64,000 bases of DNA, from assembly GCA_963695225.1 (NCBI GenBank), contig OY968762.1:1-64000 (forward strand), read 5' to 3'. Positions 23,065 to 38,646 of the stretch are shown here, piece after piece. Each line of letters opens with the position of its first letter. Positions within the stretch are counted from its first letter, which is position 1. Source of the DNA: Vulcanimicrobiota bacterium (GTDB taxonomy: Bacteria; Vulcanimicrobiota; Vulcanimicrobiia; Vulcanimicrobiales; Vulcanimicrobiaceae). The notes below the pieces were generated by a model. It searched no databases, was not told the DNA's origin, and saw only the letters and a program-made list of their open reading frames with translations. The position numbers and the translations under genes are program-made.

Positions 23065-24642
23065 ATGAACGCGACTGGCACTCACAAGATTACTCCGTCG
23101 AACCCACGCATCGCATCTCTCCTGACGGACGTATCGCGTGGGAACATAAAGATCCCAGTGTTTCAGCGAGATTTCGTATGGCTCGATGACCAGATAATGA
23201 GTCTGCTGGATTCCATCTACCGTGGGTACCCCGTTGGCTCGCTGCTTCTCTGGTCTACGAAAGAGCGACTCGTGCACGACAGAAGCGTTGGCGGATTTGT
23301 TCTACCTGACACACCGGAGGACTACCCGGTAAATTACGTTCTCGACGGTCAACAACGGCTGACGACGCTCTATGGTGTCTTTAATTCCGACGCCAGAACG
23401 GATGACCCGGAGTTGTCTGGCCGATTCAACGTCTGCTTCGTTCCTGCGGACGAGACGTTTATGCACGCGTCGGTGGCGGACCCGGCGAAGTCCATAAACC
23501 TGCACGTTATCTTGGACACGACTCGCCTCTTACCCGAACTGGCGCGGTTTTCGGACGAGGACAAGAAGAAGATCGCCTATTTGACCGAGCGATTCAAGGA
23601 CTACGAGTTTCCCGTCGTGACGATCCGGGACCGGACGAATCAAGAAGTGTGTAGGGTGTTCCAACGGATCAATTCGTCAGGAACTAGCCTCAGTACGCTG
23701 GAGCTATTGGCGGCATGGACGTGGTCGGAAGAGTTCGATCTACGGGCTGAAATCGAGACGCTGTTGGATAGGCTCAGCGACAAAGGCTACGGCGAACTCG
23801 ACGACAACCTTCTAATGCGTTGCCTCGCCTCGATTGTGCTTGGCTCGATTGATGCCGATGCGTTGGTCGACGCAGCGCCCGACAAATTGATTCAGGGAAT
23901 GTCAACCCTAAAGCAGGCGGCCTTTGCCACGGTTGATTTTCTCGACAAGGAACTCAAGATCAAGAACCTCGTGTTCCTGCCATTTCCAATTATGCTTGTC
24001 CCGCTCGTCAACTTTTTCTCCAAAACACTGAAGCCGACCGCCGCCCATCTTGCCGGACTACGGAAGTGGTTCTGGTATTGCTCCTTCACGCAACGATACA
24101 AAGCGGGCACCAATACATTGGTGATGGAGGATTTAAGAAACATGGCAAGGCTTGCGGAGGGCGAGGCGGTCTTCGACGCACTAAGCCCGAGTGTCGACAC
24201 TGCGCTCTTTCGAAAGACGTGGCGGATCAACTCCACGGCGGCGAAGGCGACTATTTGCCTTCTTGCGCAGTCCCATCCGCGAAGTTTTCTTAACGGGGCT
24301 CCAGTTGACCTCGGAAGTGCATTGGCTGCCTATAACGCACGCGAATTCCACCACATCTATCCGAAGGGGTTTCTGGCCAACATCGGCATCCCATTTCACG
24401 AATCGAACGTAATCGCAAACGTGTGTCTTTTAACGTCCGCTGACAATCGCACAATCAGCGATCGTGACCCCGTGAACTATCTCGCCGAGCTTCCTGCGGC
24501 TCTTCGAACACAGATCTTAGAGTCGGCACTTATCCCCGCGGTCGCTGGCGATGGGTCAAAACCATATGCTGAGTTCCTTTCCCTTCGGGCGGAGGCGCTT
24601 GCAGCAGCAGCGTCGCGCCAAATCAGTACTGGTTCGGCATAA
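23065..24642 (+). CDS. DUF262 (GmrSD/ParB-like) protein with C-terminal HNH-like domain
   Basis: IPVFQRDFVW, GYPVGSLLLW, VLDGQQRLTTL, FQRINSSG, EFHHIYPK..N....N. Confidence 0.9.
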   Translation: MNATGTHKITPSNPRIASLLTDVSRGNIKIPVFQRDFVWLDDQIMSLLDSIYRGYPVGSLLLWSTKERLVHDRSVGGFVLPDTPEDYPVNYVLDGQQRLTTLYGVFNSDARTDDPELSGRFNVCFVPADETFMHASVADPAKSINLHVILDTTRLLPELARFSDEDKKKIAYLTERFKDYEFPVVTIRDRTNQEVCRVFQRINSSGTSLSTLELLAAWTWSEEFDLRAEIETLLDRLSDKGYGELDDNLLMRCLASIVLGSIDADALVDAAPDKLIQGMSTLKQAAFATVDFLDKELKIKNLVFLPFPIMLVPLVNFFSKTLKPTAAHLAGLRKWFWYCSFTQRYKAGTNTLVMEDLRNMARLAEGEAVFDALSPSVDTALFRKTWRINSTAAKATICLLAQSHPRSFLNGAPVDLGSALAAYNAREFHHIYPKGFLANIGIPFHESNVIANVCLLTSADNRTISDRDPVNYLAELPAALRTQILESALIPAVAGDGSKPYAEFLSLRAEALAAAASRQISTGSA

Positions 24643-24837
24643 GTACGGAGTTGCAGGGCGCCCGTGTTGACGGATGCGTGAGCCACTCGATCATGATACT
24701 TGCGTGTAAATGAGGCCGGCTTGGCGCCGCGTTCCGCGATGCGCTCTTCGCAACATGTGGAGCGCCTGGGCGAGGACCGGAGTGGGCAATGGAGTTGCTT
24801 CCATGCCGACCGAGGCTAACAGGCGCAAATTTTGCGT

Positions 24838-24851
24838 CGAACGTATGTTTG
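24838..24851 (+). promoter_or_regulatory. Possible second LexA box upstream of the methyltransferase
   Basis: CGAACGTATGTTTG (one mismatch to CGAAC-N4-GTTCG), 7 nt before GATAAT. Confidence 0.45.
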
Positions 24852-24945
24852 CCCACAAGATAATGTGGAAGATGCGTGGAAACCCGTGGATCACCCGTGG
24901 GTCGCACTGCCCCGCTTGCCGGAGGATACTGCCATAGCCGTCGCG

Positions 24946-26358
24946 ATGCGTGTCGAGCCTTCAGATGTTCGTCCCCGCCGGGGGCACCGGCGGCCGGTAG
25001 GGATCGATCTCTTCGCAGGAGTCGGCGGCCTGTCGCTCGGCTTCGAACAAGCCGGCTTCGACGTCGTCGCATCTGTCGAATACGATCCTGTGCACGCCGC
25101 CGTCCATGAGTTCAATTTCCCGCTCACGAAGGTGGTCTGTTCGGACATCGGCTGCCTGTCGGCCGAGCGGCTCTTGGCGGCTGCGCGCGAAGGCTTTGTC
25201 CGACACGGCCACTCTGCCGAGGACTGGAACCCCGCCGAGATTGACGTTGTTTTTGGCGGCCCGCCGTGCCAGGGCTTCTCAACGATCGGCAAGCGCGACC
25301 CGTCCGACGACCGCAACAAACTAGGCTATAAGTTCGCTGACCTAATTGGCGCAATCAGACCGCGCTACTTTGCCATGGAGAACGTGCCGGGAATGGCTGC
25401 CGGTGGACACGCGAGCATTCTCGCGCGGCTCATTGCCCGCTTTCGTAAGCATGGTTACGAAGTCGCCGTGCAACTAGAAGAGGTTCGGAGGCAGGCGATC
25501 CTCAACGCCGCAGACTTCGGCGTCCCTCAGGATCGGCGTCGACTCATCTTGCTCGGCGCCCGGGAAGGACAGCCGCTGCCATCGTATCCGGCGCCGACGG
25601 TACGGCCGGCCTCGAAGCGCTCTGGCGACCAGCGCGTTACGGACCCGTCCGACGTCTTGTCGCCGGGCCCAACGGTCGGGGACGCTCTGCTCGATCTCCC
25701 CGATCTTGATGGCTTCGACGAGCTAATTTCGACCGACGAAGTTGCGCTGAGGGCCCGGCAGTTCGAGCGATTAACGCGGCTCGCGTCCGACTACGTCCGC
25801 CGATTGCGCGGCATGGACGAAGATCCCTACGATTTGTCACATCGACGGCTATGGGCGCCGCGCGTGCTGACGTCGTCGATGCGTACCGTTCATACTGCCG
25901 AGTCGATTCATCGCTTCGCCTCGACCCGGCAAGGAGATACCGAGCCGATTTCGCGCTTCTATCGTCTGGACGCTCGTGGGTTATGCAACACACTTCGCGC
26001 GGGCACGGGCAGCGAACGCGGTGCTTACACTTCCCCGCGCCCCATCCATCCGACGCTTGATCGGGTGCTCTCCGTTCGCGAGGCCGCTCGGCTGCACTCG
26101 TTTCCCGACTGGTTCCGATTGCACAGGACGAAATGGAATGGTTTCCGGAGCATCGGGAACGCAGTTCCGCCGCTGCTCGGGCGGGCTATCGGTCGAGCGA
26201 TTGTCGAAGCGCTGGACGTCGAGCCGATTCGCCCGGCGCAAGAGATCGCGCTTGGTAATCCGGTCTTGCTTGGCTTGAACCGGCTTCAAGCGGCTGCATA
26301 CTTCGATGCTGACGAGCGGTTTATCCCGAAGGTCCGCAAGCGTCTGACGGTGGTATAA
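24946..26358 (+). CDS. DNA cytosine-C5 methyltransferase
   Basis: IDLFAGVGG, GGPPCQGFS, MENVPG, GVPQDRRR, REAARLHSFPD, IGNAVPP; start approximate. Confidence 0.95.
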   Translation: MRVEPSDVRPRRGHRRPVGIDLFAGVGGLSLGFEQAGFDVVASVEYDPVHAAVHEFNFPLTKVVCSDIGCLSAERLLAAAREGFVRHGHSAEDWNPAEIDVVFGGPPCQGFSTIGKRDPSDDRNKLGYKFADLIGAIRPRYFAMENVPGMAAGGHASILARLIARFRKHGYEVAVQLEEVRRQAILNAADFGVPQDRRRLILLGAREGQPLPSYPAPTVRPASKRSGDQRVTDPSDVLSPGPTVGDALLDLPDLDGFDELISTDEVALRARQFERLTRLASDYVRRLRGMDEDPYDLSHRRLWAPRVLTSSMRTVHTAESIHRFASTRQGDTEPISRFYRLDARGLCNTLRAGTGSERGAYTSPRPIHPTLDRVLSVREAARLHSFPDWFRLHRTKWNGFRSIGNAVPPLLGRAIGRAIVEALDVEPIRPAQEIALGNPVLLGLNRLQAAAYFDADERFIPKVRKRLTVV

Positions 26359-27191
26359 TGGCGAAGCCAGCAAAGGCGGGCATGTATGCCGCCGTGATCG
26401 ACCGGTTGTTCTTTTCCCGATATGAAGCCGGAAAGACGGAACTTGATTTCGACCGTGCCGAAATCGATTCGACGGCCCGCGAACTTGGTCTGGACGTCGC
26501 GAAGAACCTCGGAGACTTAGTCTACTCATTTAAGTTTCGGCGCGACTTGCCGGCCGCGATCCGGGCCACCGCACCGGAAGGCTTGGAATGGCGGCTTACC
26601 AACAGCGGTCGAGCGCGATACAAGTTCATTCTGGGGCCACAATTCCGGGTCGAACCCGACGCGACGCTGGCGGAAACGAAGATACCGGATGCAACCCCTG
26701 GTATCATCGCCAAATACGCACTCTCAGACGAGCAAGCGCTATTAGCGAAGCTGCGCTACAATCGTCTAGTCGATATTTTTACGGGTGTGACATGCTATTC
26801 GCTGCAGAATCATCTACGCACGAGCGTTCTCGTCGACGCTGAGACTAGCGAGACGATGCAGATCGAGACAGACGAGATCTACGTCGGCGTTGATCGAAGG
26901 GGCGCGCACTACGTATTCCCAGTCCAGGCGAAAGGCGGGAGCGATAAGATCGCCATTCAGCAGATCGAGCAAGACGTGCTGCTCTGCCAACAGAAGTTTC
27001 ATGAACTCATTTGCGTCCCAATCGCGGCGCAGTTCATGTCCGGCGATGTAATAGTGCTCTTCGCGTTCGAGTCGTCAGCGGACGGCCCTCGCAAGAGCGT
27101 GGAGCGCCACTACCGACTCGTCGCCGAGGACGACGTTTCGGACGGCGATCTTAAGACCTATCGCGAACGCCTAGGCTCCGACCGTTTCTAG
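26358..27191 (+). CDS. Putative PD-(D/E)xK restriction endonuclease
   Basis: Coupled to the MTase (TAATG); QIETDEIYVG...PVQAKGG. Confidence 0.75.
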   Translation: MAKPAKAGMYAAVIDRLFFSRYEAGKTELDFDRAEIDSTARELGLDVAKNLGDLVYSFKFRRDLPAAIRATAPEGLEWRLTNSGRARYKFILGPQFRVEPDATLAETKIPDATPGIIAKYALSDEQALLAKLRYNRLVDIFTGVTCYSLQNHLRTSVLVDAETSETMQIETDEIYVGVDRRGAHYVFPVQAKGGSDKIAIQQIEQDVLLCQQKFHELICVPIAAQFMSGDVIVLFAFESSADGPRKSVERHYRLVAEDDVSDGDLKTYRERLGSDRF

Positions 27192-27219
27192 AGCTCGGGC
27201 TCTGGGGCCGAAGGCGCGT

Positions 27220-27852
27220 TTGACCGCGCGCATGGTCGCGGAACGGGCGAGGTCGTATTTTCTCGCCGAGGGTCGCGAGTTTCCGTGGCGTGCGGCGCGC
27301 AACCCGTTCCATCTCGCGATTGCCGAAATACTCTTGCAGAGGACGCGCGCTCAAAGCGTCATCCCGACATACTCGGCGATGATTGCTCGTTACCCAACAC
27401 CGTCGGCGCTGGGTGGGGCGTCTCTCCTGGAACTTGAGACGGCGCTGCTGCCTCTCGGGCTCTCAAAGAAGCGAGCTAGGCAACTCGTTGGGATGGGCGC
27501 CGCGGCACGCGATCTCGGCGAAACGATTTTCGGGGATTGGCGGGCATTGCTGACTGATGTTCCTGGGCTAGGTGCATATGCTGCGCGCGCGATTGCGTGT
27601 TTCGGGGGAGGCGAGCCCGTTGGGATCGTGGACGCGAACATCGCGCGAATTTTGCGGCGTGTCTTCCGCATACGCACGACCGATCCACGCGCCGCCGCCT
27701 ATCAGTGCCATGCCGATGAGGTGGCCGTCGCTGCTGTCGATCCACGGGCGACAAACTTCGGTTTGCTTGATGTCGGCGCGGTAGTATGTGCTCCGAGACC
27801 GATGTGTGATCGCTGCCCATTCGCCGATTTCTGCCCACGCTATGGCGTATGA
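27220..27852 (+). CDS. HhH-GPD DNA glycosylase with 4Fe-4S motif (Mig/short MutY-like)
   Basis: FPWR, AEILLQRT, VPGLGAYAA, VDANIAR, C-x5-C-x2-C-x5-C; 210 aa with no MutT-like tail. Confidence 0.85.
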   Translation: MTARMVAERARSYFLAEGREFPWRAARNPFHLAIAEILLQRTRAQSVIPTYSAMIARYPTPSALGGASLLELETALLPLGLSKKRARQLVGMGAAARDLGETIFGDWRALLTDVPGLGAYAARAIACFGGGEPVGIVDANIARILRRVFRIRTTDPRAAAYQCHADEVAVAAVDPRATNFGLLDVGAVVCAPRPMCDRCPFADFCPRYGV

Positions 27853-28744: not shown

Positions 28745-29857
28745 ATGAGCGTCTACAAACGCAAGTCCGGTCAGTGGGCCGTGCGAGTCGACGTCGATCG
28801 CGACGCCGACGGTCGCCGTGTCCGCAAGAACCTCGGCACGTTCCCTACGCGAAAGGCGGCCGAGTCGGCAGAGCGCAAGGCACTCGAAGCGCGGGATCGC
28901 GGAGTCGACTTCGATCTAGCGGCGCTTACAGTCGGTGAAGCCTGCGACCGATTCCTCGATCGGTGCCGGGCGAAAAATCTGGCCCCGGCCAGTTTGACCC
29001 GCTACGCCGAGCACTTCCGGGACCTCAGTGCAATCCGGGACGCGCCTATCGGCCGGCTCACGCACGGCCAGGTGTGCAGAGTCTACCAGGCCGCCGCCGC
29101 ACGAAACCTCTCGCCGAAGTCCCTGCGGGTCCTCCACGGCGCGCTCCGCGCCGTGGTCGCCTGGGCCGTCCCCGAATCGCCCAGCATGCGTGCCTTGACA
29201 CTAGCCGCCCGCGACCTGCCGAGTGTCCCGAAAACCTTGGCGCGGGCGCTCGACGAGGGCGAGGTGCAGCGTCTCCTTGCCGCCGCCGCCGCGACCCCCT
29301 GGGAGGCGTTCCTCGTGCTGGCGATCTGCACCGGGGCGCGGCGATCGGAGCTTGCGGCCCTGCGTTGGGACGACATCGACTTTGCGCATCGGACGGCCAA
29401 GATCGCGCGCTCCTTGGCGTTCGACGTGCAGGGCGACCTCGCCGAAAAGTCTACGAAGACCGGGACCGAGCGCTTCGTCTCACTGAACGTCCTCGCTCTC
29501 GATACGCTCCGCGCACACCGGGCAAACCAAGCCGAAGAGCGCCTGCGCGCCGGACCGGCCTACGAAGCGAACAATCTCATCTTCGCCGACCCGGTAGGAC
29601 GGCCGTGGAACCCCCACTCGATCTCAAACGCGTTCGCTCGACTAGCCAAGCGTGCGGGTGTTTGCGGACGCTTACACGACTTGAGGCACAGTTGCGCGAG
29701 CTGGCTGTTGCAGGGCGGAACCGACGTTCGGACCGTTGCGGGGATCCTCGGCCACAGCACTCCGGTCACGACCCTCGGCACCTACGCCCACGTCATGCCC
29801 GGAGCACAGGCGCAGGCCGTCGAGCAGATCGCCGATCGCCTCCGCCGGCGCCCGTAA
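28745..29857 (+). CDS. int: Tyrosine integrase with N-terminal arm-binding domain
   Basis: TGARRSEL, TKTG, HDLRHS, LGHS, TYAH; complete catalytic set. Confidence 0.95.
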   Translation: MSVYKRKSGQWAVRVDVDRDADGRRVRKNLGTFPTRKAAESAERKALEARDRGVDFDLAALTVGEACDRFLDRCRAKNLAPASLTRYAEHFRDLSAIRDAPIGRLTHGQVCRVYQAAAARNLSPKSLRVLHGALRAVVAWAVPESPSMRALTLAARDLPSVPKTLARALDEGEVQRLLAAAAATPWEAFLVLAICTGARRSELAALRWDDIDFAHRTAKIARSLAFDVQGDLAEKSTKTGTERFVSLNVLALDTLRAHRANQAEERLRAGPAYEANNLIFADPVGRPWNPHSISNAFARLAKRAGVCGRLHDLRHSCASWLLQGGTDVRTVAGILGHSTPVTTLGTYAHVMPGAQAQAVEQIADRLRRRP

Positions 29858-29870
29858 GCGCCACGGAGAG

Positions 29871-29901
29871 CGGTGACCATTCGGTGACCATACGGGTCAC
29901 C
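29871..29901. repeat. Integrase arm-type sites
   Basis: CGGTGACCAT twice in direct orientation plus inverted GGTCACC; related GGTGGCCATTCGG at 30079-30091; copy at 38365-38395. Confidence 0.65.
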
Positions 29902-30004
29902 AAAGGCGGTTACTGGACGGTACGAGACGAGCCGCGATGTCGCGCAAACCCTTACGGGTCGGGCTTCTTCGACACAAGGTGCTACGGAACGACACCGCTA
30001 CCCT

Positions 30005-30028
30005 CGAGTTCGAGTCTCGGTCATCCCA
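30005..30028 (+). repeat. att core: 3' end of a tRNA (T-arm plus acceptor strand)
   Basis: CGAG-TTCGAGT-CTCGG-TCATCCC-A; identical copy at 38499-38522. Confidence 0.85.
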
Positions 30029-30413
30029 TTGAAAGAACCTTAATTTGATAGGATTCTTTGAGTAAGGCAAGCGTGCGAGGTGGCCATTCGGCGGTGCATC
30101 CATGGCAATCTCTTGGTTAAACCCAAGCTAGGACGTTTGTGCGATTGTCGATTCTGGTATTGTTACTGACCCGAATCCGAGAAGTTTGGAGTAACTAAGC
30201 TGGATTGGAAAATAGGGCCTACGGTTGCCGCTTTAGCGCAGGATACGAAACCAAACGGTGATCGAAAAGATCGTTGGGGCCTACTACTGAGAAGTCGGGT
30301 CACCGATCTACGACACCTGCAGACCGCCAAGATAGTGGCATGAAAGGACCTCGCCCAGTCATTCACGATTACGGCAACTACGCAGGGAATCGGCGAAGAC
30401 GGGTTGGGCTTGA

Positions 30414-31329: not shown

Positions 31330-34300
31330 TTACTGTGGTCCAAAGGCTTCCTCGGCGCTGCGAATTGAATGCTCCGCACGCCGCTGTCCCATCCGCCGTA
31401 GGCCCTCGAAGAACCGTCGCACGTAGGGCGACAGCCCTTCGCGCTGCAGCGCCGCATCTCCAATCGCTGTGAGGCGCAAATCGCTCGGGGCGGGCTCGTA
31501 ATGACCCACGGCTTCAGCGCCCGAAACCAAGGCATTCGTAATTGGTCCTTCGAGCCGGCTACCGAGGTCTTCGCTCGAGGCGTATGCGCGCTCGAGAATG
31601 CGGATGACGTAGTCCACGTCCGTGGTCAGCATTTCGTGGGGAACGTGGCGCAGCCAGGAGACCCCAACCTGTTGCCCTTCGACGTCAGCGTCATCGAGTG
31701 CAGCCTCGACCATGCGTTTGACGATGTCTGGTGCGGCTTCCCCAACGCGGCCGACGAGGAGTGCCACCCGATCGCACTCGCGATGCGTCAGACCCTTCCT
31801 GTGCGACAGCGCAAGCAATTCTTGCTCGAATGACGGCGATTCGAGAAGTGCCTGAATGAGTTCGTCGAACTCACGACCGACGTAGGGAATAGCGTGGTAC
31901 GAGCGTTCGTCCGGCCCGTCGAAGATCCGCGCCCCGAAAAGAGTCAGCACAATTGAAGAGCGCGTCGGGGCGATTTTGCTGAGGAAGCTGAGCGGCCAAT
32001 ACTCGAGGTCTGGAACACGCGCGAGCTTGCTCACCAGTGCCTCGAGGATTGCGTGGTCTGCGTGATCGATACCCGAAGGTAACGCCATGAAAATGCGGTT
32101 AGCGAGCTGCGCATCATCATCGATGTTCGTCGTCAGGGCGAGCGCCACGATGCGGTCAGGATAGCGCCTCTTAAAAAAGAGCAAATTGTGGGCTGCCGCG
32201 CGTCGCACCTCGAGCCGGGGATCTGACAGCAGTCGCGCAAATAGGCGCTGCCGCATCTCGCCGTCACGGTCGTCCGAACCGACGCGAAGCGGAAGGGCGT
32301 TTGAGACCCCTATTGCAGCTTCGATGCTCCCTTGATTGAGGACGCGGTGCGCGAACGCCTCGCCGCTCGCTGGGTCACGCTCGAGCCTCGTCGCGACGAA
32401 GGGGGCGATGCCTTGCAAATACCTTGGGTCACCGCGCTCGAGGATCGCTTCGCCGAGCGAATCGCTGAGATCCGGCCGCAAACGCGAAATTTCCCAAAAG
32501 ATGTGCCATGGCGTCCCGCCAAGACCGGCGCGCCCGATCGCGTCGAGGCGCGCAGCGAGGTCCTCCAAGAGGCCGTTCGGTTCGGGGAACTCCGCGACTA
32601 GCTGCTCTGTGGTGCGCTCGAGAAACGCTGCGCGCCGCTGCTCGCCGACGGCTGGATCCTCGGTACGGAGGTCGACGAACGTGTCGAAGACGAGGAAGCT
32701 GTCGATCATGGCGCGGTATCGGTTGCGCTCGGCGGTTGGAGCAAGCCGATCCAGAATCGATCCGGCGCGCTCGAGAACGAGTCGTGTCCTGCCGTACTGC
32801 GCGTAGAAGCCCAAGGAGTGGAAAATACGCAGCTCGCGGATTGGCCATGCGCCGCCTACAATGATGCGGTCGAAGGCGTCGAACGCCATCGCCCGCTCGC
32901 GATCCCAGGATGCGATGGTTTCGAGTGTCGGCTCAACAATCTGGTTTTCCGGGTCGCGCAATAGGTCAACGAGCAGCTTGATGGCGCGGTCTGCACGGCG
33001 ATCATCGGGTCCCAAAGCGCTCGCGGCGACCATAGAGATGGTGCGGTCACGCAGCAGTCGCACCGAGTCAACGGCTAGCACCGTCCGATGAATCGTGAGT
33101 TGTGTCGCGCGCGAGAGCATCGAAGAAACGTCCCGCTTGAGGACGGGGGCGACGAGGTCCAAGAGTGAGTGCTGGGGAGTGTCACGTTCGCCGCGATCAA
33201 GGAGAGCGCCAACGGCATCGACAATTCTCGCAGCCAGTCCGGAGCCGACGCCGATTTCGTACGCAGCGAGATCGGTGATGAGACGTAACGGATCCTCACG
33301 GCTATGGTTGGTGTCGCTTTCTTTCCCCAGGTGCCACAAGAGCTGGACGCACCGCGCGACGAGGTTTGGCGATCCGAGCATCACGAACCTTAGAACGCCC
33401 GGAATTTCGCGCAGTACGTCATCGTGAGTGAGCACGAAGCCGGCGTTGAAGAAGGGTTGCGTGTCCTCGTTCGTCGCAGGATGAGCGACGAGGTACGTGA
33501 CGAGTTCGTAGACGTCATCGGGCTTATAGAAACCGAGCTCGTTGAGGCTTTCGAGGAACTGCGCACGAACTAAACTGTTCGCCGACTTGACGATCTCTTG
33601 CACGTGATACCACGCGGGCGTGAAGACATCGGGGCCGTCGGTTGTGCGGGACTCGAGGTCGGCGATCGCAATGTTTCGTAAGAGTTGCGCGTTGAGTGGA
33701 AAATGTTCGAGGAGCCGCAGATGAAAAGCCGTTTGTCGTCCGCGGACGACGAGGGCTTCGAGAAGGATCGATTGTCGGAGCATCTCCGGCGCGATGAGGT
33801 ACTGAAATCCCCGGCGGACCAGGACCCCCGCGTCGTCGAGTGCGTCTAGCGCGCGGAGAAGACGGTCAACGTCCATGTCAACCGCCGCGGCGGCACCGGC
33901 AAGCCACACCTCGTCCTCGATCTTCGCCGGGCCGAGTGCGGCAAGCAGCTGAAGGGTCGCCTTTACATCGTCTTTCGGCACGTCGTCGGAGACGCGACCA
34001 GTAGCGATCTCCCGGTACAGTGAACGGACGAGGTCGCGGACGTCTGCGTTGCTCTTCAGATCGCTGGGGTTGCTGCGTTGGTCTCGCAACAGCCGGGTCG
34101 TGAGAATCGTGTCGAGCGGGGTATCGATCGCGAACTTGACGATTGCTTCCTCAACGTGAGGGTCTTCGTTGCCAAGGACTTGTCGCACGAGCGCGATCGT
34201 GGGCTCGCGTGTTAAGGGTCGCAGCGGGATCGGCCGAACCTCGTCGGGTGCAAAACCCGCCTGTACGACGCTGTCGTACAGTAACGTGGTAGAGGACGGG

Positions 34301-35205
34301 CCCGTTAGGAGGATCTTGAGCTCGGGCATTCGGAGCGCGTGGGTAAGCAGCGCCTGGAGACCATCGACATCCGGCGCGTCATCGACGACGAGCAGACCAG
34401 GCCCAAACCGCAGTTCCCGCAAGGCCTCGGAGGTGACGGCCATGCCCGGTACGTGAAAGACTGTGGAGCGGCCCGGGATCGGAGTCGCGGTCAGGTCGTA
34501 GGCCGTTTTCGTCTTCCCAATGCCGATCGGGCCTGTCACGATCGCGACCCGCTCGCCTGAAGCGAGGAATGACCTCAACTCGTCGAGCGCAGCCGGCGAT
34601 CCGACGCGGGTCCACGCATGATTGATGGGCCGAGCGGGATCTACAAAAGGTTCGAAGTACGCGTCGTGCCCGATGAACGTTGTTACGCGGCCACGGCCGA
34701 GGAACGGCGCAACGAAGCTCGCACCAAGATTCCGTTCGATGTAGTCGGCGGCTTCATCGTGCGGAAGCTCGCGGACCGCGTCGCTGAGACGCACTTGGTC
34801 CCAGAGTTCCCACTTCGCGTGCTTACCGAGTTCCGTGCGCGCGCCGACCGTCGCTCGTTGCGAGAGCGCGAGGATGTACCCGTCGGCTCGGTACGTCGCC
34901 TGCGCGACAGCCTTCGCGACGTCCCTCGCTCCGAAGTTTGCTACCTTTTTTGCTTGAATCCCGAGATGACCGCGCTCATCCGAATCAGCGCGGATATCTA
35001 TGCCTGCTTGATCATCGCCCGAGACGCCATGAAATTCGACGTTGGTATAGCCACCAACGCGACGAAAGAGGTCACGGACCGCCTCTTCGAACCAGGGCCA
35101 GGGCTGATTCGGATCGTTGAACGGTAGGTAAGGAATGCGGGGTCGAATCGGCAGGGCACCGACGTCGTGCGTCGGCCTCGAACGATCGGGATTGTGGGTG
35201 CTCAC
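31330..35205 (-). CDS. Mrr-like nuclease + STAND NTPase + helical-repeat protein (Avs/NLR-like defence)
   Basis: FEEAVRDL..DQAGIDI..GIQAKK; Walker A GPIGIGKT; Walker B LLVVDDA; long helical C-terminus; 1291 aa. Confidence 0.8.
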   Translation of the reverse strand: MSTHNPDRSRPTHDVGALPIRPRIPYLPFNDPNQPWPWFEEAVRDLFRRVGGYTNVEFHGVSGDDQAGIDIRADSDERGHLGIQAKKVANFGARDVAKAVAQATYRADGYILALSQRATVGARTELGKHAKWELWDQVRLSDAVRELPHDEAADYIERNLGASFVAPFLGRGRVTTFIGHDAYFEPFVDPARPINHAWTRVGSPAALDELRSFLASGERVAIVTGPIGIGKTKTAYDLTATPIPGRSTVFHVPGMAVTSEALRELRFGPGLLVVDDAPDVDGLQALLTHALRMPELKILLTGPSSTTLLYDSVVQAGFAPDEVRPIPLRPLTREPTIALVRQVLGNEDPHVEEAIVKFAIDTPLDTILTTRLLRDQRSNPSDLKSNADVRDLVRSLYREIATGRVSDDVPKDDVKATLQLLAALGPAKIEDEVWLAGAAAAVDMDVDRLLRALDALDDAGVLVRRGFQYLIAPEMLRQSILLEALVVRGRQTAFHLRLLEHFPLNAQLLRNIAIADLESRTTDGPDVFTPAWYHVQEIVKSANSLVRAQFLESLNELGFYKPDDVYELVTYLVAHPATNEDTQPFFNAGFVLTHDDVLREIPGVLRFVMLGSPNLVARCVQLLWHLGKESDTNHSREDPLRLITDLAAYEIGVGSGLAARIVDAVGALLDRGERDTPQHSLLDLVAPVLKRDVSSMLSRATQLTIHRTVLAVDSVRLLRDRTISMVAASALGPDDRRADRAIKLLVDLLRDPENQIVEPTLETIASWDRERAMAFDAFDRIIVGGAWPIRELRIFHSLGFYAQYGRTRLVLERAGSILDRLAPTAERNRYRAMIDSFLVFDTFVDLRTEDPAVGEQRRAAFLERTTEQLVAEFPEPNGLLEDLAARLDAIGRAGLGGTPWHIFWEISRLRPDLSDSLGEAILERGDPRYLQGIAPFVATRLERDPASGEAFAHRVLNQGSIEAAIGVSNALPLRVGSDDRDGEMRQRLFARLLSDPRLEVRRAAAHNLLFFKRRYPDRIVALALTTNIDDDAQLANRIFMALPSGIDHADHAILEALVSKLARVPDLEYWPLSFLSKIAPTRSSIVLTLFGARIFDGPDERSYHAIPYVGREFDELIQALLESPSFEQELLALSHRKGLTHRECDRVALLVGRVGEAAPDIVKRMVEAALDDADVEGQQVGVSWLRHVPHEMLTTDVDYVIRILERAYASSEDLGSRLEGPITNALVSGAEAVGHYEPAPSDLRLTAIGDAALQREGLSPYVRRFFEGLRRMGQRRAEHSIRSAEEAFGPQ

Positions 35206-35816
35206 CGGTCCTCCAAGTGGAGTGAGGACACGTCGACGCCGCCACGGTCTAAGAGCTCGCCCATGCGCTGCGCAAAGGCCGGCGCATGTCGGGCCAGCCG
35301 GTCGAGGACTGAATGGTGCGTCATCAGGGGTCTCTTAAGTGATGCCGCTTGCTCGAAGATACGGCGAGCGATGCGAACCTCGTTCCCGGGCCCCGCTTCG
35401 ACCAGCTCCGTCAGAAAGCGGTCCGCATTCAGCGGGCGGATTCGCCGTGGCAGCAACGCCTCGAGCGGAAAGTCCCGCACGTTCTGCGTGACGAGCAGGT
35501 CGGCGTCACTGCGAATCCCGGCGGCGAGGACGTGGCGATCCTTCGCATCGTTTCCCAAGCGGGGGATGAGAGACTCGTAGTCTTCGGTTAGAGCCTCCGG
35601 GAAAGCGTCGTTCATCAACGTGATGCGTCGCAGGGCTTGGGCCGGCGAGCAAAGTCCGTCGTCGACGAGGTTGCAACGAACCTCCTCGAGGATCTGCGGC
35701 GACCACCGCGGCAGATACAGGCCCAGCTCGGCAAGTGAGAGGAGTGTATCGCACAGCGGCATCGGGATGAGCACGTCCGCATCGAGGAGGGCGACAATCT
35801 CCTTAGCTAGGCTCAT
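35202..35816 (-). CDS. PIN-domain toxin
   Basis: ALLDADVL, WSPQILEE, DAKDRHVLAA, LVTQNVRDFP. Confidence 0.9.
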   Translation of the reverse strand: MSLAKEIVALLDADVLIPMPLCDTLLSLAELGLYLPRWSPQILEEVRCNLVDDGLCSPAQALRRITLMNDAFPEALTEDYESLIPRLGNDAKDRHVLAAGIRSDADLLVTQNVRDFPLEALLPRRIRPLNADRFLTELVEAGPGNEVRIARRIFEQAASLKRPLMTHHSVLDRLARHAPAFAQRMGELLDRGGVDVSSLHLEDR

Positions 35817-36246
35817 CGTAGGCGCCGAGCTCAACGCTCTGCTCGTGTAGTTCGCCCAGCGCGCTGCGCCGTCGACGATCGCGGCGCTCCTTGTAGGCGA
35901 GGACGTCGCCGAGCGTGACGCGATGATGGGTGCCGACCTTCAGCGCATTCAACTCGCCCGCGGCGACCAGGCGCCGCACGAACTCCCGCGAGACGCCCAG
36001 TACGCTGCCCACCTCTCGGAGGGATAGCTGCCGATCACTCGGGACGATGTGGACGCTGGCACCGCGGTCCAAGTGCGCGATGATGTTGCGCAAGGCCACA
36101 ACGATCGATTCGGGCAGGACGGCCGGCTCCCCGCCGACCTGCAACGTCACCACGCTGCCGGAACGCGGTTCGGCGAGGAGGAGGTACTTCAGGCGAGTGA
36201 CGGTCGCCCGGTCGGCTGGCAAAGCGGCGAGATGATCGAGGGGCAT
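35803..36246 (-). CDS. Excisionase-type HTH protein, likely antitoxin of the PIN gene
   Basis: LSLREVGSVLGVSREFVRRLVAAGEL..KVGTHHRV..DVLAYK. Confidence 0.88.
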   Translation of the reverse strand: MPLDHLAALPADRATVTRLKYLLLAEPRSGSVVTLQVGGEPAVLPESIVVALRNIIAHLDRGASVHIVPSDRQLSLREVGSVLGVSREFVRRLVAAGELNALKVGTHHRVTLGDVLAYKERRDRRRRSALGELHEQSVELGAYDEPS

Positions 36247-36437
36247 GCAACCATTTTAGTCCATCAAGTGCTATAACTGCAACCACCGCCGTATTCTGCT
36301 CGAGGGAGCGGATCCACGGAGCTTCTCGGTGGCCGCTTCGGGCGATCGTGCCATCGCTTTGGAGCCGATGACCAGTAAGTTCATTAGTTATCGGATTGCT
36401 ATTTACAGCTATGCGATACCTGTGCTACCATGGTCCC

Positions 36438-37112
36438 ATGGCGAAATTGAGCGTGACGCTGGCCGAGGGCGCAGATAGAGCGCTTCGAGCTCTCGCCCTT
36501 GAGCATGGGACGAATCACTCTGTCGTGACTGAGGCGGCTGTCATGCACCTTGCGCATCTCCCGGCATTTGAGAGAGAACGTTTAATCCGCGGTATTCACG
36601 CCAGCAAAAAAGCGTATACGCGGGGCAGATGGCGCGCAGCGTTCTGGGATGCGGTGTATGACGAATTTTGGTTCGCTCAAGAGTTGCGAAGCGGTCGGCT
36701 CAGCGATTATACGCCCTTGACCTTTGCCGGTTTCCAAATCTGGTTTCAGACCGATAGAGTGGCTGAGCCGGATCCGGAAGACGCTCCTTTCTACGTGCAG
36801 GTCATGGCGAACCCAAACGAGCAACGATTGTCCCCCAAAGACACGCGACATCAATTCACGTTTTCGCGAGACCTCTCCCCGTACGACGCCGCGCTCGAAG
36901 TCGCAAACTTTATTCGGGATCGGGTTTCCGCTCTAGGTACGCTTGAGATCGTTGAACTCCCAGGCGGGGGAAGGGCACTACTCGATCATGCTGGTCCGCA
37001 TTGGATGGCGCAGCCAGAAATCGATCCAACACGGTTGCCAATAGCTGTAAACGGCGAAACCGGATCTTTCATTTTGGAATATCGCTACGTCTTGCGACGG
37101 CGACAAACTTAG
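36438..37112 (+). CDS. Hypothetical protein with ribbon-helix-helix-like N-terminus
   Basis: MAKLSVTL..ADRALRALA..HG.NHS.V.EAAV; TGcTACCAT just upstream of the ATG. Confidence 0.6.
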   Translation: MAKLSVTLAEGADRALRALALEHGTNHSVVTEAAVMHLAHLPAFERERLIRGIHASKKAYTRGRWRAAFWDAVYDEFWFAQELRSGRLSDYTPLTFAGFQIWFQTDRVAEPDPEDAPFYVQVMANPNEQRLSPKDTRHQFTFSRDLSPYDAALEVANFIRDRVSALGTLEIVELPGGGRALLDHAGPHWMAQPEIDPTRLPIAVNGETGSFILEYRYVLRRRQT

Positions 37113-37189: not shown

Positions 37190-37876
37190 CTACCAGCCTA
37201 CGGGCTTCTTGATGGTCTTGCCTTGCGCGTCGATGAGGACGCTTGGGAACTGTGCTGCAGCCAAATGTTCTTCCCTAATATCGCGCGAAAACTTCGCGAT
37301 CTTGCGCAATGTGATGCTTTGTTTCGCCTGTGGTGCCGGTCCAGGACGTCCGGTAATGCGATGCTGACAGTCAGCCGTGCTCTGCGAATGAGGGTTGAAG
37401 ATGCCGACCGGAATATTCAACTCCTTGTTGATGATTCGCACAGGCTCTGCGAGATCAGAGTCGTTCGTAACAACGATGAGCTGATCGCAATCGTTGCGGA
37501 AAGCATCGACAAGCATGTGCGTTGCGATATTGACGTCGGAGCCTTTCTCTTCCATTTTCACGACCTGAACCGTAGCGGGACCGCCGACGGGTGGATTGGC
37601 AAGCCGCATGCGCGGTTTGCTCTCCAGAAAATGGCCATAGTGAACGGTGAGGTTCGGGATTGTTTCGAGCGCGCGAATGAAGAACTGCTGCCGGTTGGCC
37701 ATATGGGGGTCGGCGGGCGTCGATTTTACGAGTGCCGTAAAATAGCGAATCCGGTTGATGCTAAGTCCTGGGAGAACTTCTAGGCAGAGCTTCGCAACGT
37801 CGAGCCATTTGTATGGCGTGCCCTTGACGGCACCGTAATAGAGATTGAAGCCGTCGATGTAGATATTGGTGCGAAT
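37190..37876 (-). CDS. NYN (LabA/DUF88, PIN-like) ribonuclease with probable ATT start codon
   Basis: Frame open 58 codons upstream of the tracked ATG: IRTNIYIDGFNLYYG...EEKGSDVNIA...VTNDSDL; AGGAG 7 nt before ATT. Confidence 0.85.
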   Translation of the reverse strand: MRTNIYIDGFNLYYGAVKGTPYKWLDVAKLCLEVLPGLSINRIRYFTALVKSTPADPHMANRQQFFIRALETIPNLTVHYGHFLESKPRMRLANPPVGGPATVQVVKMEEKGSDVNIATHMLVDAFRNDCDQLIVVTNDSDLAEPVRIINKELNIPVGIFNPHSQSTADCQHRITGRPGPAPQAKQSITLRKIAKFSRDIREEHLAAAQFPSVLIDAQGKTIKKPVGW

Positions 37877-37890
37877 TCCCAGGCTCCTAG

Positions 37891-37948
37891 AAAAAGCAAA
37901 GCCGCCTTGCGGCGGCTCGCACCCTCGCTCCGAAGATTGAGGGGGGAT
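37891..37948 (-). ncRNA. Candidate ~60-nt leader/antitoxin RNA: UUCG hairpin plus intrinsic terminator
   Basis: CCCUC-AA-UC-UUCG-GA-GC-GAGGG then AGCCGCC-GCAA-GGCGGCU-UUGCUUUUU; TGcTATCCT upstream. Confidence 0.5.
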
Positions 37949-38192
37949 ACCTTTAGGATAGCAGCCTCGTCAAGGCGGGTCCTTAAGGTTAAAGGTGGCT
38001 CCTTTCCGGCGGGTGACCCGGACACGTGTCTGGGCAAAGGAAAAAGAGGCATTGGAGATTGGGTAATCTGGCCAATTCGGGCCAGGGCGCCAACCTTCGA
38101 GGCTTGACATCGGGTGATACCCTGAGAAACTTGGCCGCCGGCCGGTAACCGGAGGCGGGTTGACTATCTTACCTGAGGAACAAGCGCATCAG

Positions 38193-38351
38193 ATGAGTCG
38201 CGTTGAAGACTTAAGAGAGAACGCGACCGTTCGCGGGATTTTGCCTAGCGGTCTCGTCACCGTGGTCAGTACGAAGTGGTATGGGTCGGCCGCCCTAGCT
38301 CAGGCGCAGGCCGTCGAGCAGATCGCCGATCGCCTCCGCCGGCGCCCGTAG
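38193..38351 (+). pseudogene. Chimeric remnant: helicase-like N-terminus fused in frame to integrase C-terminus
   Basis: MSRVEDLRENATVRGILPSGLVTVVSTKWYGS followed by AQAQAVEQIADRLRRRP, identical to the integrase tail. Confidence 0.7.
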
Positions 38352-38522
38352 GGGCCACGGAGAGCGGTGACCATTTGGTGACCATACGGGTCACCAAAGG
38401 CGGGTACTGGACAATACCAGACGAGCCGCGATGTCGCGCAAACTCCTACGCGGCGGGCTTCTTCGACACCAGGCGCTACGGAACGACACCGCTACCCTCG
38501 AGTTCGAGTCTCGGTCATCCCA
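38301..38522 (+). repeat. 222-bp direct repeat of 29807-30028
   Basis: Manual comparison: 13 mismatches, no gaps. Confidence 0.95.
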
Positions 38523-38646
38523 GCGAAAACCCGCGGGCCGGCGACCTTCGCTTTTCGGTTCGCGAAAACGAGAGGATGCGGGCTCTTCGGGCCCCAAGCA
38601 TGAGGGGTTTGTCTAGGCAAATCAGCTTGCTTTCGGAGATCCCTCC

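Follow-up and report, generated by a model that had tools for sequence, protein, structure and literature searches.

A real and widespread small-RNA/NYN module, apparently uncatalogued, is carried by the Vulcanimicrobiota contig OY968762.1, the first 64,000 nucleotides of which (the window) were analysed here. The module combines a gene for a protein with a NYN (PIN-like) fold and a predicted small RNA of about 60 nt with two hairpins. Comparison across homologous loci indicates that the RNA is very probably a trans-acting partner of the NYN protein. The pair is probably an RNA-antitoxin module, in which binding of the RNA would keep a likely toxic NYN ribonuclease inhibited. Protein-binding RNA antitoxins have been described for few toxin folds. 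If this reading is true, the PIN-fold RNase and its 60-nt RNA would bring a new fold and a new family of RNA to this set, and would provide a function for the very common "NYN domain-containing protein".

The locus in the window

All elements of the module lie on the minus strand. The predicted promoter is an extended -10 element, TGc TATCCT (37955..37963), from which transcription would start near 37949. A -35/-10 consensus scan called no promoter at this locus, and TTGACG at 37973 was rejected as a -35 element since its spacer to the -10 is just 7 nt; thus only the extended -10 fits. The closest named relative (L001, 91% identical), a Vulcanimicrobiales MAG, has TGc-TATGAT at the matching position. 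The whole predicted RNA (37889..37951) is matched by the RNA model R1 with 56 bits, the only match of R1 in the host genome. It comprises an unpaired 5' tail, UAUCCC (37944..37949), and a first hairpin, P1 (37922..37943), with a CCC/GGG base, a 2x2 internal loop in the window copy and a cUUCGg loop. A single U separates P1 from the second hairpin, P2 (37896..37920), which has a GCAA loop and serves as the stem of a predicted intrinsic terminator completed by a U-tract of five Ts (37891..37895). At the base of P2, GCGAG pairs with 3' TT-T-GC over a one-base bulge, and this 3' bulge, two pairs above the base, is conserved. The Shine-Dalgarno sequence AGGAG (37884..37888) follows, and then the NYN gene (37190..37876, 228 aa), which ends with a stop at 37190.

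The -10 element, P1, AGGAG, the 7-nt gap and ATT are all where an earlier note on this DNA had placed them. Its terminator was borne out as to the GCAA loop and the U-tract ending at 37891, but the hairpin begins at 37920 and not at 37917. The window carries one RNA unit and no tandem array. Folded alone, this unit is only moderately better than chance (z -2.7, with 3/200 shuffles equally good). The evidence for its reality is comparative, from covariation among homologs.

Structure and conservation of the RNA

Upstream regions from 80 genome loci and one viral locus align with a common order of elements: TTGACA, about 17 nt, a -10 box, the tail, P1, P2 and a short U-tract. Structural conservation was evaluated in an alignment of 110 NYN-linked copies, hand-picked out of 190 distinct matches by leaving out orphans, loci with short flanks, near-duplicates and a few copies with long inserts. 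In this alignment 93.1% of cells are paired, and 18/20 pairs show compensatory changes on both sides. All pairs of P1 have changed on both sides (9/9), while P2 is 97% paired with 9/11 pairs compensatory. The covariation score was 0.471 compared with 0.213 for shuffled and at most 0.137 for slid alignments; related sequences can beat shuffles, so that the score is not a probability, and the slid controls agree with it. RNAalifold recovered both hairpins unaided. The most conserved sites are the unpaired C preceding P1 (109/110), the tetraloop G and an A-U pair near the base of P2 (108/110), making the C of the C-rich tail that lies beside P1 a candidate protein contact.

The predicted promoter is mostly kept along with the RNA. 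A -10 box stands at the expected distance in 63/80 upstream-type copies (13/80 control windows) and in 17/21 copies that face the gene (0/21 controls). The earlier note had considered that homologs might have ATG starts and no conserved leader, with ATT a decay mutation; its proposed alignment of upstream regions shows instead that the RNA is conserved with covariation, and non-AUG starts recur among the homologs. Searches against Rfam, both at the gathering cut-off and at E <= 10, gave only generic hairpin matches and no family for the window RNA. The abiF family (RF03085) matched neither the window nor the RNA at 15 loci. A pseudoknot between the UUCG loop and CGAG, the sole candidate tested, was rejected, having no pair changed on both sides and a score at shuffle level.

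Linkage to NYN genes and orientation

R1 matches lie beside 79 of the 81 NYN loci found by protein search. The match is upstream on the same strand in 69 (two of these are weak, at 18-21 bits), convergent downstream in 6 (Streptomycetaceae and an Acidimicrobiia MAG) and divergent in 4. The two misses are a locus with a stop at the gene start (L027) and one at a contig end (L039). Most of the 81 loci are training sequences of R1, and a search from the RNA side was therefore made too. This search, by a degenerate pattern that favours one subgroup, returned at least 2 viral and at least 121 metagenome loci. Among the 123 RNA-found matches listed, 43 lie upstream of a NYN gene, 41 face one, 2 are divergent and 37 have no NYN gene in range; 6 of these 37 have at most 206 nt of downstream sequence, and 41 later loci were available with flanks of about 300 nt only. 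A pattern for P1 only was discarded, as 1/36 of its matches in viral contigs was near NYN and most were chance matches in coding DNA.

In 151 genomes of Dehalococcoidia the RNA model and the protein alignment were searched separately, and genes scoring at least 180 bits were counted as members of the clade. An RNA lies within 400 nt of 32/38 clade genes, upstream in 30 and as a downstream same-strand doublet in 2 (G177, G104). Of the six exceptions, five show a diverged copy upstream (21-41 bits) and one a weak match in convergent position. Counted by genome, RNA and NYN occur together in 29, RNA alone in 9, NYN alone in 1 and neither in 112, counts in which related genomes are not independent. 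Among 151 Streptomyces genomes, the RNA and a clade gene occur together in the seed genome only; other RNA matches reach at most 28 bits, and there is one other NYN gene (110 bits). Among 60 related genomes the protein is present in one (G019, partial), where an upstream RNA match accompanies it, and R1 has five further matches at 27-32 bits.

The RNA also occurs without its usual neighbour. In Dehalococcoidia, 29/70 matches above 30 bits have no clade NYN gene nearby, a count that includes one match near a distant NYN only. These orphans flank unrelated genes, a decayed NYN (L233) or a DUF3800-like gene (L236, with two RNA copies upstream of that gene, which was recognised by reading its sequence). 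Orphans fit the loss of a toxin or the storage of antitoxins, but they also fit a less specific element. Orphan doublets and triplets in which each RNA has its own promoter are found in L236, L226, L218, L220 and L223, and such stacks are possibly stored antitoxins. The gene before the RNAs is the same in L236 and L226, but a DUF3800-like gene follows them in L236 only. In L218 the window-type RNA adjoins a separate DUF3800-IX RNA.

The variety of positions bears on whether the RNA acts in cis or in trans. The conservation of promoter, tail and P1 in copies that point at or away from NYN is best read, on sequence comparison, as the mark of an RNA gene acting in trans, and the occurrence of convergent, divergent, downstream, doublet and array forms likewise points to a trans-acting partner. 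It is unlikely that the RNA is instead a cis attenuator or an autoregulatory leader that the NYN enzyme itself cleaves, or else a portable promoter-terminator cassette, with the other positions being leftovers of rearrangement or terminators only. The upstream layout is the commonest (69/81), orphans precede unrelated genes, and convergent copies, whose ends lie no more than 40 nt from the NYN stop, could terminate the NYN transcript. There is also a 3-bp alternative hairpin spanning the P1/P2 junction that shows some covariation (24 cells, 0/500 shuffles). This hairpin, however, is just 3 bp long with a signal concentrated in one clade, and a cis leader cannot act from convergent or divergent positions. 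Divergent copies are unable to terminate or attenuate NYN, convergent and divergent copies alike retain a P1, a 5' tail and a promoter aimed against or away from NYN, none of which a terminator needs, and the second promoter within doublets would cancel stacked attenuation. A quick tree, which was used for grouping by orientation, start codon and array, gives three changes each to the convergent and the divergent layout. Its well-supported branches force just one convergent origin, and so the layout counts cannot be taken as independent events.

Convergent copies would overlap the 3' UTR of the NYN mRNA, which raises the question of a type I-like antisense RNA pairing with the mRNA through this 3' overlap or, by its C-rich tail, at the ribosome binding site. 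Across 17 convergent loci, pairing of the tail is slightly stronger at the start region of the same locus than at those of other loci (-3.7 vs -3.1 kcal/mol; 0/200 shuffles). These energies are very small, and no preference for the own start was seen in 78 upstream loci (26/200) or in 5 divergent loci (98/200). Upstream and divergent layouts give no overlap, and the RNA is not complementary to the coding sequence of its own NYN gene (7.51 vs 7.48 nt, 90 pairs). Complementarity to the toxin mRNA, by which type I systems are recognised, is thus confined to a possible 3' overlap in the convergent layout, and an antisense mode is very improbable. A 67-nt maximum of antisense complementarity vanished once the comparison was confined to coding sequence.

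More distant NYN/LabA-type genes seem to have C-tract-led small RNAs of their own. By eye, other units of promoter, C-tract hairpin and terminator that R1 does not match are seen upstream of such genes in L253 and L220 (~1690-1760), convergent in L254, L257, L259 and L263, and divergent in L252; inspection of L256, L258, L264 and L265 gave no such unit.

Copy number, arrays and mobile elements

Two promoter-plus-RNA units stand in a row at 4 of the 81 loci (L024, L053, L055, L056), and on small plasmids of E. coli and Klebsiella the RNA forms arrays of 4-5 tandem 33-nt units. A 4.5-kb Klebsiella plasmid (L269) has 3.8 copies of a 33-nt unit, a terminator and then NYN, and another plasmid locus (L276) has 5 tandem units upstream of NYN. 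Sixteen further plasmids carry the L269 array at 95% identity or more, and the array version occurs naturally on 4.6-kb E. coli plasmids. Each unit consists of a C-rich tract and the P1 hairpin. L065, L069 and L277 each have one unit only, with the P1 of L269, and the L269 protein groups with theirs (98% SH-aLRT). On this sequence comparison, the layout that defines type III systems appears to have been reached inside a clade that otherwise has single RNAs, and copy number varies as for an antitoxin.

The module is carried by islands, plasmids and a prophage. Among plasmid records, 452 contain NYN homologs, as do 3 phage records, and a scan of viral proteins gave 1 locus. Ten mobile-element loci were scored with R1. 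A Mycobacterium abscessus prophage has a convergent RNA directly after the NYN stop (64 bits), and on one E. coli and one Leptospira plasmid the RNA lies upstream (36 bits). Of the rest, six scored 16-24 bits (16-22 bits for L270-L274) and one, L275, had no match. Proteobacterial plasmid homologs (L271 and hit H29) are annotated with a C-terminal Xre/MbcA/ParS antitoxin-type domain, yet L271 retains a weak upstream RNA match.

Copy number and layout also bear on whether the RNA could be a positive partner of NYN, such as a cofactor, scaffold or sensor, in a ribonucleoprotein that either is active as a whole or is set off by contact of a phage factor with the RNA. Any obligate RNA-protein pair would fit the positional freedom and sequence conservation seen here, and the DUF3800, drum and skipping-rope RNAs show such a positional pattern with no known function (Weinberg et al. 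2017, PMC5737381). The layout, on the other hand, favours an excess of RNA, with a terminator in front of the gene, weak starts, doublets and arrays, and the RNA has no variable single-stranded segment that could serve as a guide. A positive role is accordingly considered improbable, and inhibition of the NYN protein by the RNA is the preferred reading.

The NYN protein

The window protein has a Pfam NYN match (PF01936, E 5e-9) and no other Pfam domain. It is basic (pI 9.4), with conserved K/R residues, a C-terminal KPxxW motif and acidic active-site residues D8, D114, D139 and D141. In an alignment of 108 of 151 proteins, D8, N11, E110, D114 and D141 show no variation, with D139 at least 90% conserved, in agreement with the earlier note, which had described the catalytic Asp motifs as intact. 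The predicted fold (pLDDT 94) is closest to VPA0982 (2qip; Z 16.5, rmsd 3.0, 156 aligned) and to the NYN domain of MARF1 (5yaa, 6fdl; Z 15.9, rmsd 2.5, 145 aligned), far above the rest, and Foldseek agrees on these nearest folds. Identity to these structures is just 11-19%, and a sequence search of the PDB with the window protein gave nothing significant. The fold and the residues suggest that the protein is a ribonuclease. NCBIfam has no family for it. Homologs fall into 543 clusters at 50% identity (E <= 1e-30). The PADLOC profile HEC-09 (PDLC04163) matches the window protein with 130 bits (E 1.8e-38, profile positions 3-147 of 203).

The start codon

The window gene likely starts with AUU (ATT, 37874..37876), at the Met position of homologs as the earlier note had held; the alternative is an in-frame CUG (37882-37880). 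ATT is 7 nt from the Shine-Dalgarno sequence and CTG 1 nt. AUU is favoured because the spacing of AGGAG to ATG in the host is most often 7 nt (12 cases, against 5 with a spacing of 1, in a crude ORF count) and because host infC (G000 C1 ~2257350, minus strand; L314) appears to use an ATA start after AAGGAG-9 nt, with no in-frame ATG, GTG or TTG within the stretch examined. An AUU start lowers translation.

Evidence from sequencing runs consists of assembled contigs only. A contig of run X1, possibly the source sample, is identical to the window over 37623-37913 (0 differences), and thus ATT is not an assembly error. Contigs of three further runs have no difference listed across the RNA and start region, while an X2 contig differs at 66/712 bases across a wider stretch. 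In an X11 contig, a one-base deletion at 37876 leaves ATT and moves CTG out of frame, though at a depth of 2.2 it may be an error. The one contig from an RNA run, with a depth of 2.2, spans into the promoter.

Start codons were tallied at 142 distinct loci, with 112 upstream-type and 24 convergent or divergent; one row of this tally may come from G019. Upstream-type genes start with ATG in 49 cases, GTG in 15 and TTG in 30; 2 have a distant canonical start and 16 have none. Convergent and divergent loci include none with TTG only, 2 with no canonical start and 1 with a distant canonical start only. In 11 of the 16 non-canonical upstream-type loci, ATT, ATC or ATA lies exactly at the Met position, and 9 of these genes were judged intact. 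Such starts occur in at least three branches of the tree. ATC is the sole near-cognate start available in L004 and L010/L011, where a stop closes the frame 4-5 codons upstream. The recurrence of AUU, AUC and AUA starts explains why annotation pipelines truncate or miss these genes. The earlier note had called the toxin doubly attenuated. This holds for the window lineage but is not general, since 49 of the upstream-type loci have ATG and the convergent and divergent loci lack this terminator in front of the gene.

The same data make decay of the window gene, with ATT as the remnant of a broken start, highly improbable. Frameshifts or truncations do occur in some homologs, and in L001 the place of the window's CTG, two codons upstream, is taken by an in-frame ATG. 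That ATG, however, is only 1 nt behind the Shine-Dalgarno sequence, and ATT is retained both in L001 and in the diverged run contigs. The dN/dS of the window against L001 is 0.078, and seven pairs of AUC/AUU/AUA loci give 0.055-0.089, compared with 0.08 for TTG and ATG pairs; these low values reflect purifying selection. Two loci whose NYN gene is intact and likewise under purifying selection (L112, L130; dN/dS 0.116) carry TCG or TCA in place of the Met codon and lack a canonical start within 14 codons.

Proposed mechanism and comparison with known systems

Under the antitoxin reading, the promoter would yield mostly short, terminated RNA, and rare read-through, together with the AUU start in the window lineage, would keep the enzyme scarce. 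The NYN protein would recognise the C-rich 5' tail and P1, since these are the sole parts repeated in the plasmid arrays. The RNA would bind and inhibit NYN directly, as in type III and AbiF systems. If the RNA supply were lost, either with the element or because a phage shuts off host transcription, the released RNase would arrest growth, resulting in maintenance of the element and possibly in abortive infection.

The layout of promoter, hairpin RNA, terminator and RNase gene is common to the module and AbiF/RCd22, in which a hairpin RNA is the antitoxin of a HEPN Abi_2 toxin and the RNase is reached by read-through (Saunier et al., bioRxiv 2025.04.15.648962). The AbiF RNA, for which the available text of that preprint describes no pseudoknot, is sometimes duplicated and is prophage-borne, and the AbiF line has been linked to the origin of Cas13 (bioRxiv 2025.04.15.648962). 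In contrast to AbiF, the protein here has the NYN/PIN fold and not Abi_2/HEPN, the RNA does not match RF03085, and the RNA may also be convergent, divergent or downstream.

Type III systems (ToxIN, CptIN, TenpIN) have an array of ~33-36-nt repeats in variable number, a terminator and an RNase; their toxins have the MazF/Kid fold and their RNAs are pseudoknots (PMC5086642). The plasmid loci L269 and L276 match this array-terminator-RNase layout exactly. Like type III, the module is a single-gene element on plasmids and prophages with an intrinsic terminator between RNA and NYN (a sequence feature of the window and of the 69 upstream loci). It differs in its NYN fold, its stem-loop RNA, its mostly single unit, as in the window, and its free orientation.

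Freedom of orientation is common to the NYN-linked RNA and the DUF3800-I to -XI, drum and skipping-rope motifs (PMC5737381), for which the module offers a testable model. The partner here is NYN, the RNA is different, and the lone DUF3800-IX match belongs to the separate neighbouring RNA in L218. NYN is unmentioned in the main text of PMC5737381. In a table of PMC8040213, NYN appears 5 times, and the 2 examined cases are neighbours within 5 kb of other motifs; the available text of the Minerva preprint contains NYN 0 times. No description of a NYN-linked RNA was found in the literature searched, a collection with few subscription journals.

HEC-09 belongs to the same protein family by HMM, with a MARF1-like NYN fold and conserved aspartates. 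Payne et al. (bioRxiv 2024.01.29.577857) proposed HEC-09 as a single-gene defence candidate that, cloned with its native promoter region, protected against no phage tested; the terms "ncRNA" and "non-coding" are absent from the main text. This result could reflect a tightly held toxin or the wrong phages. The antitoxin reading, if true, would suggest why HEC-09 seemed inert when cloned with its native upstream region. VPA0982 and MARF1 have the NYN fold in common with the window protein, and no RNA partner has been described for either as far as found.

A wider reading is put forward tentatively, its chances being judged slightly short of even. It holds that the module is the founding member of a third structural class of RNA-inhibited toxin, with the PIN/NYN fold, after MazF-fold type III and HEPN AbiF toxins, spanning Chloroflexota, Acidobacteriota, Actinomycetota, Patescibacteria, Spirochaetota and enteric plasmids; that a series leads from free-standing single RNAs through doublets to a processed array; and that control by RNA may be general for mobile bacterial NYN genes, with orphan stacks as stored immunity.

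Genomic context of the module

The module is the cargo gene nearest the right end of an 8.3-kb region bounded by two repeats. The left copy (29803..30034, 232 nt) contains the 3' end of an integrase gene (28745-29857) and an att-like end; the right copy (38297..38528) is 93% identical and holds a truncated integrase copy at 38297. A third att-like copy is present in the host genome (C1:2956123-2956152). The att-like ends resemble a tRNA T-arm plus CCA, and ARAGORN found no tRNA at the three sites. The repeats and integrase copies suggest tandem accretion of islands across the contig start.

The cargo also includes an HNH gene, an Mrr-domain gene and a PIN_3/HTH_17 pair. A 238-aa ORF (36396-37112, plus strand) that converges on NYN has no Pfam, NCBIfam or PADLOC match, and PADLOC found no Hma system among the five neighbours of the window NYN gene that were scanned. 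The HTH_17 and PIN_3 genes have overlapping ends (35202-36246, minus strand) and are likely a protein-antitoxin pair. A 1291-aa protein (31330-35205, minus strand), whose N-terminal domain is an Mrr-like nuclease and which also has a P-loop-like motif and a weak match to HEAT, has no PADLOC match and is a candidate for defence. Before the integrase gene, at 23065-27852, lie DUF262-like, cytosine methyltransferase, putative endonuclease and HhH-GPD-like genes, as judged by motifs only.
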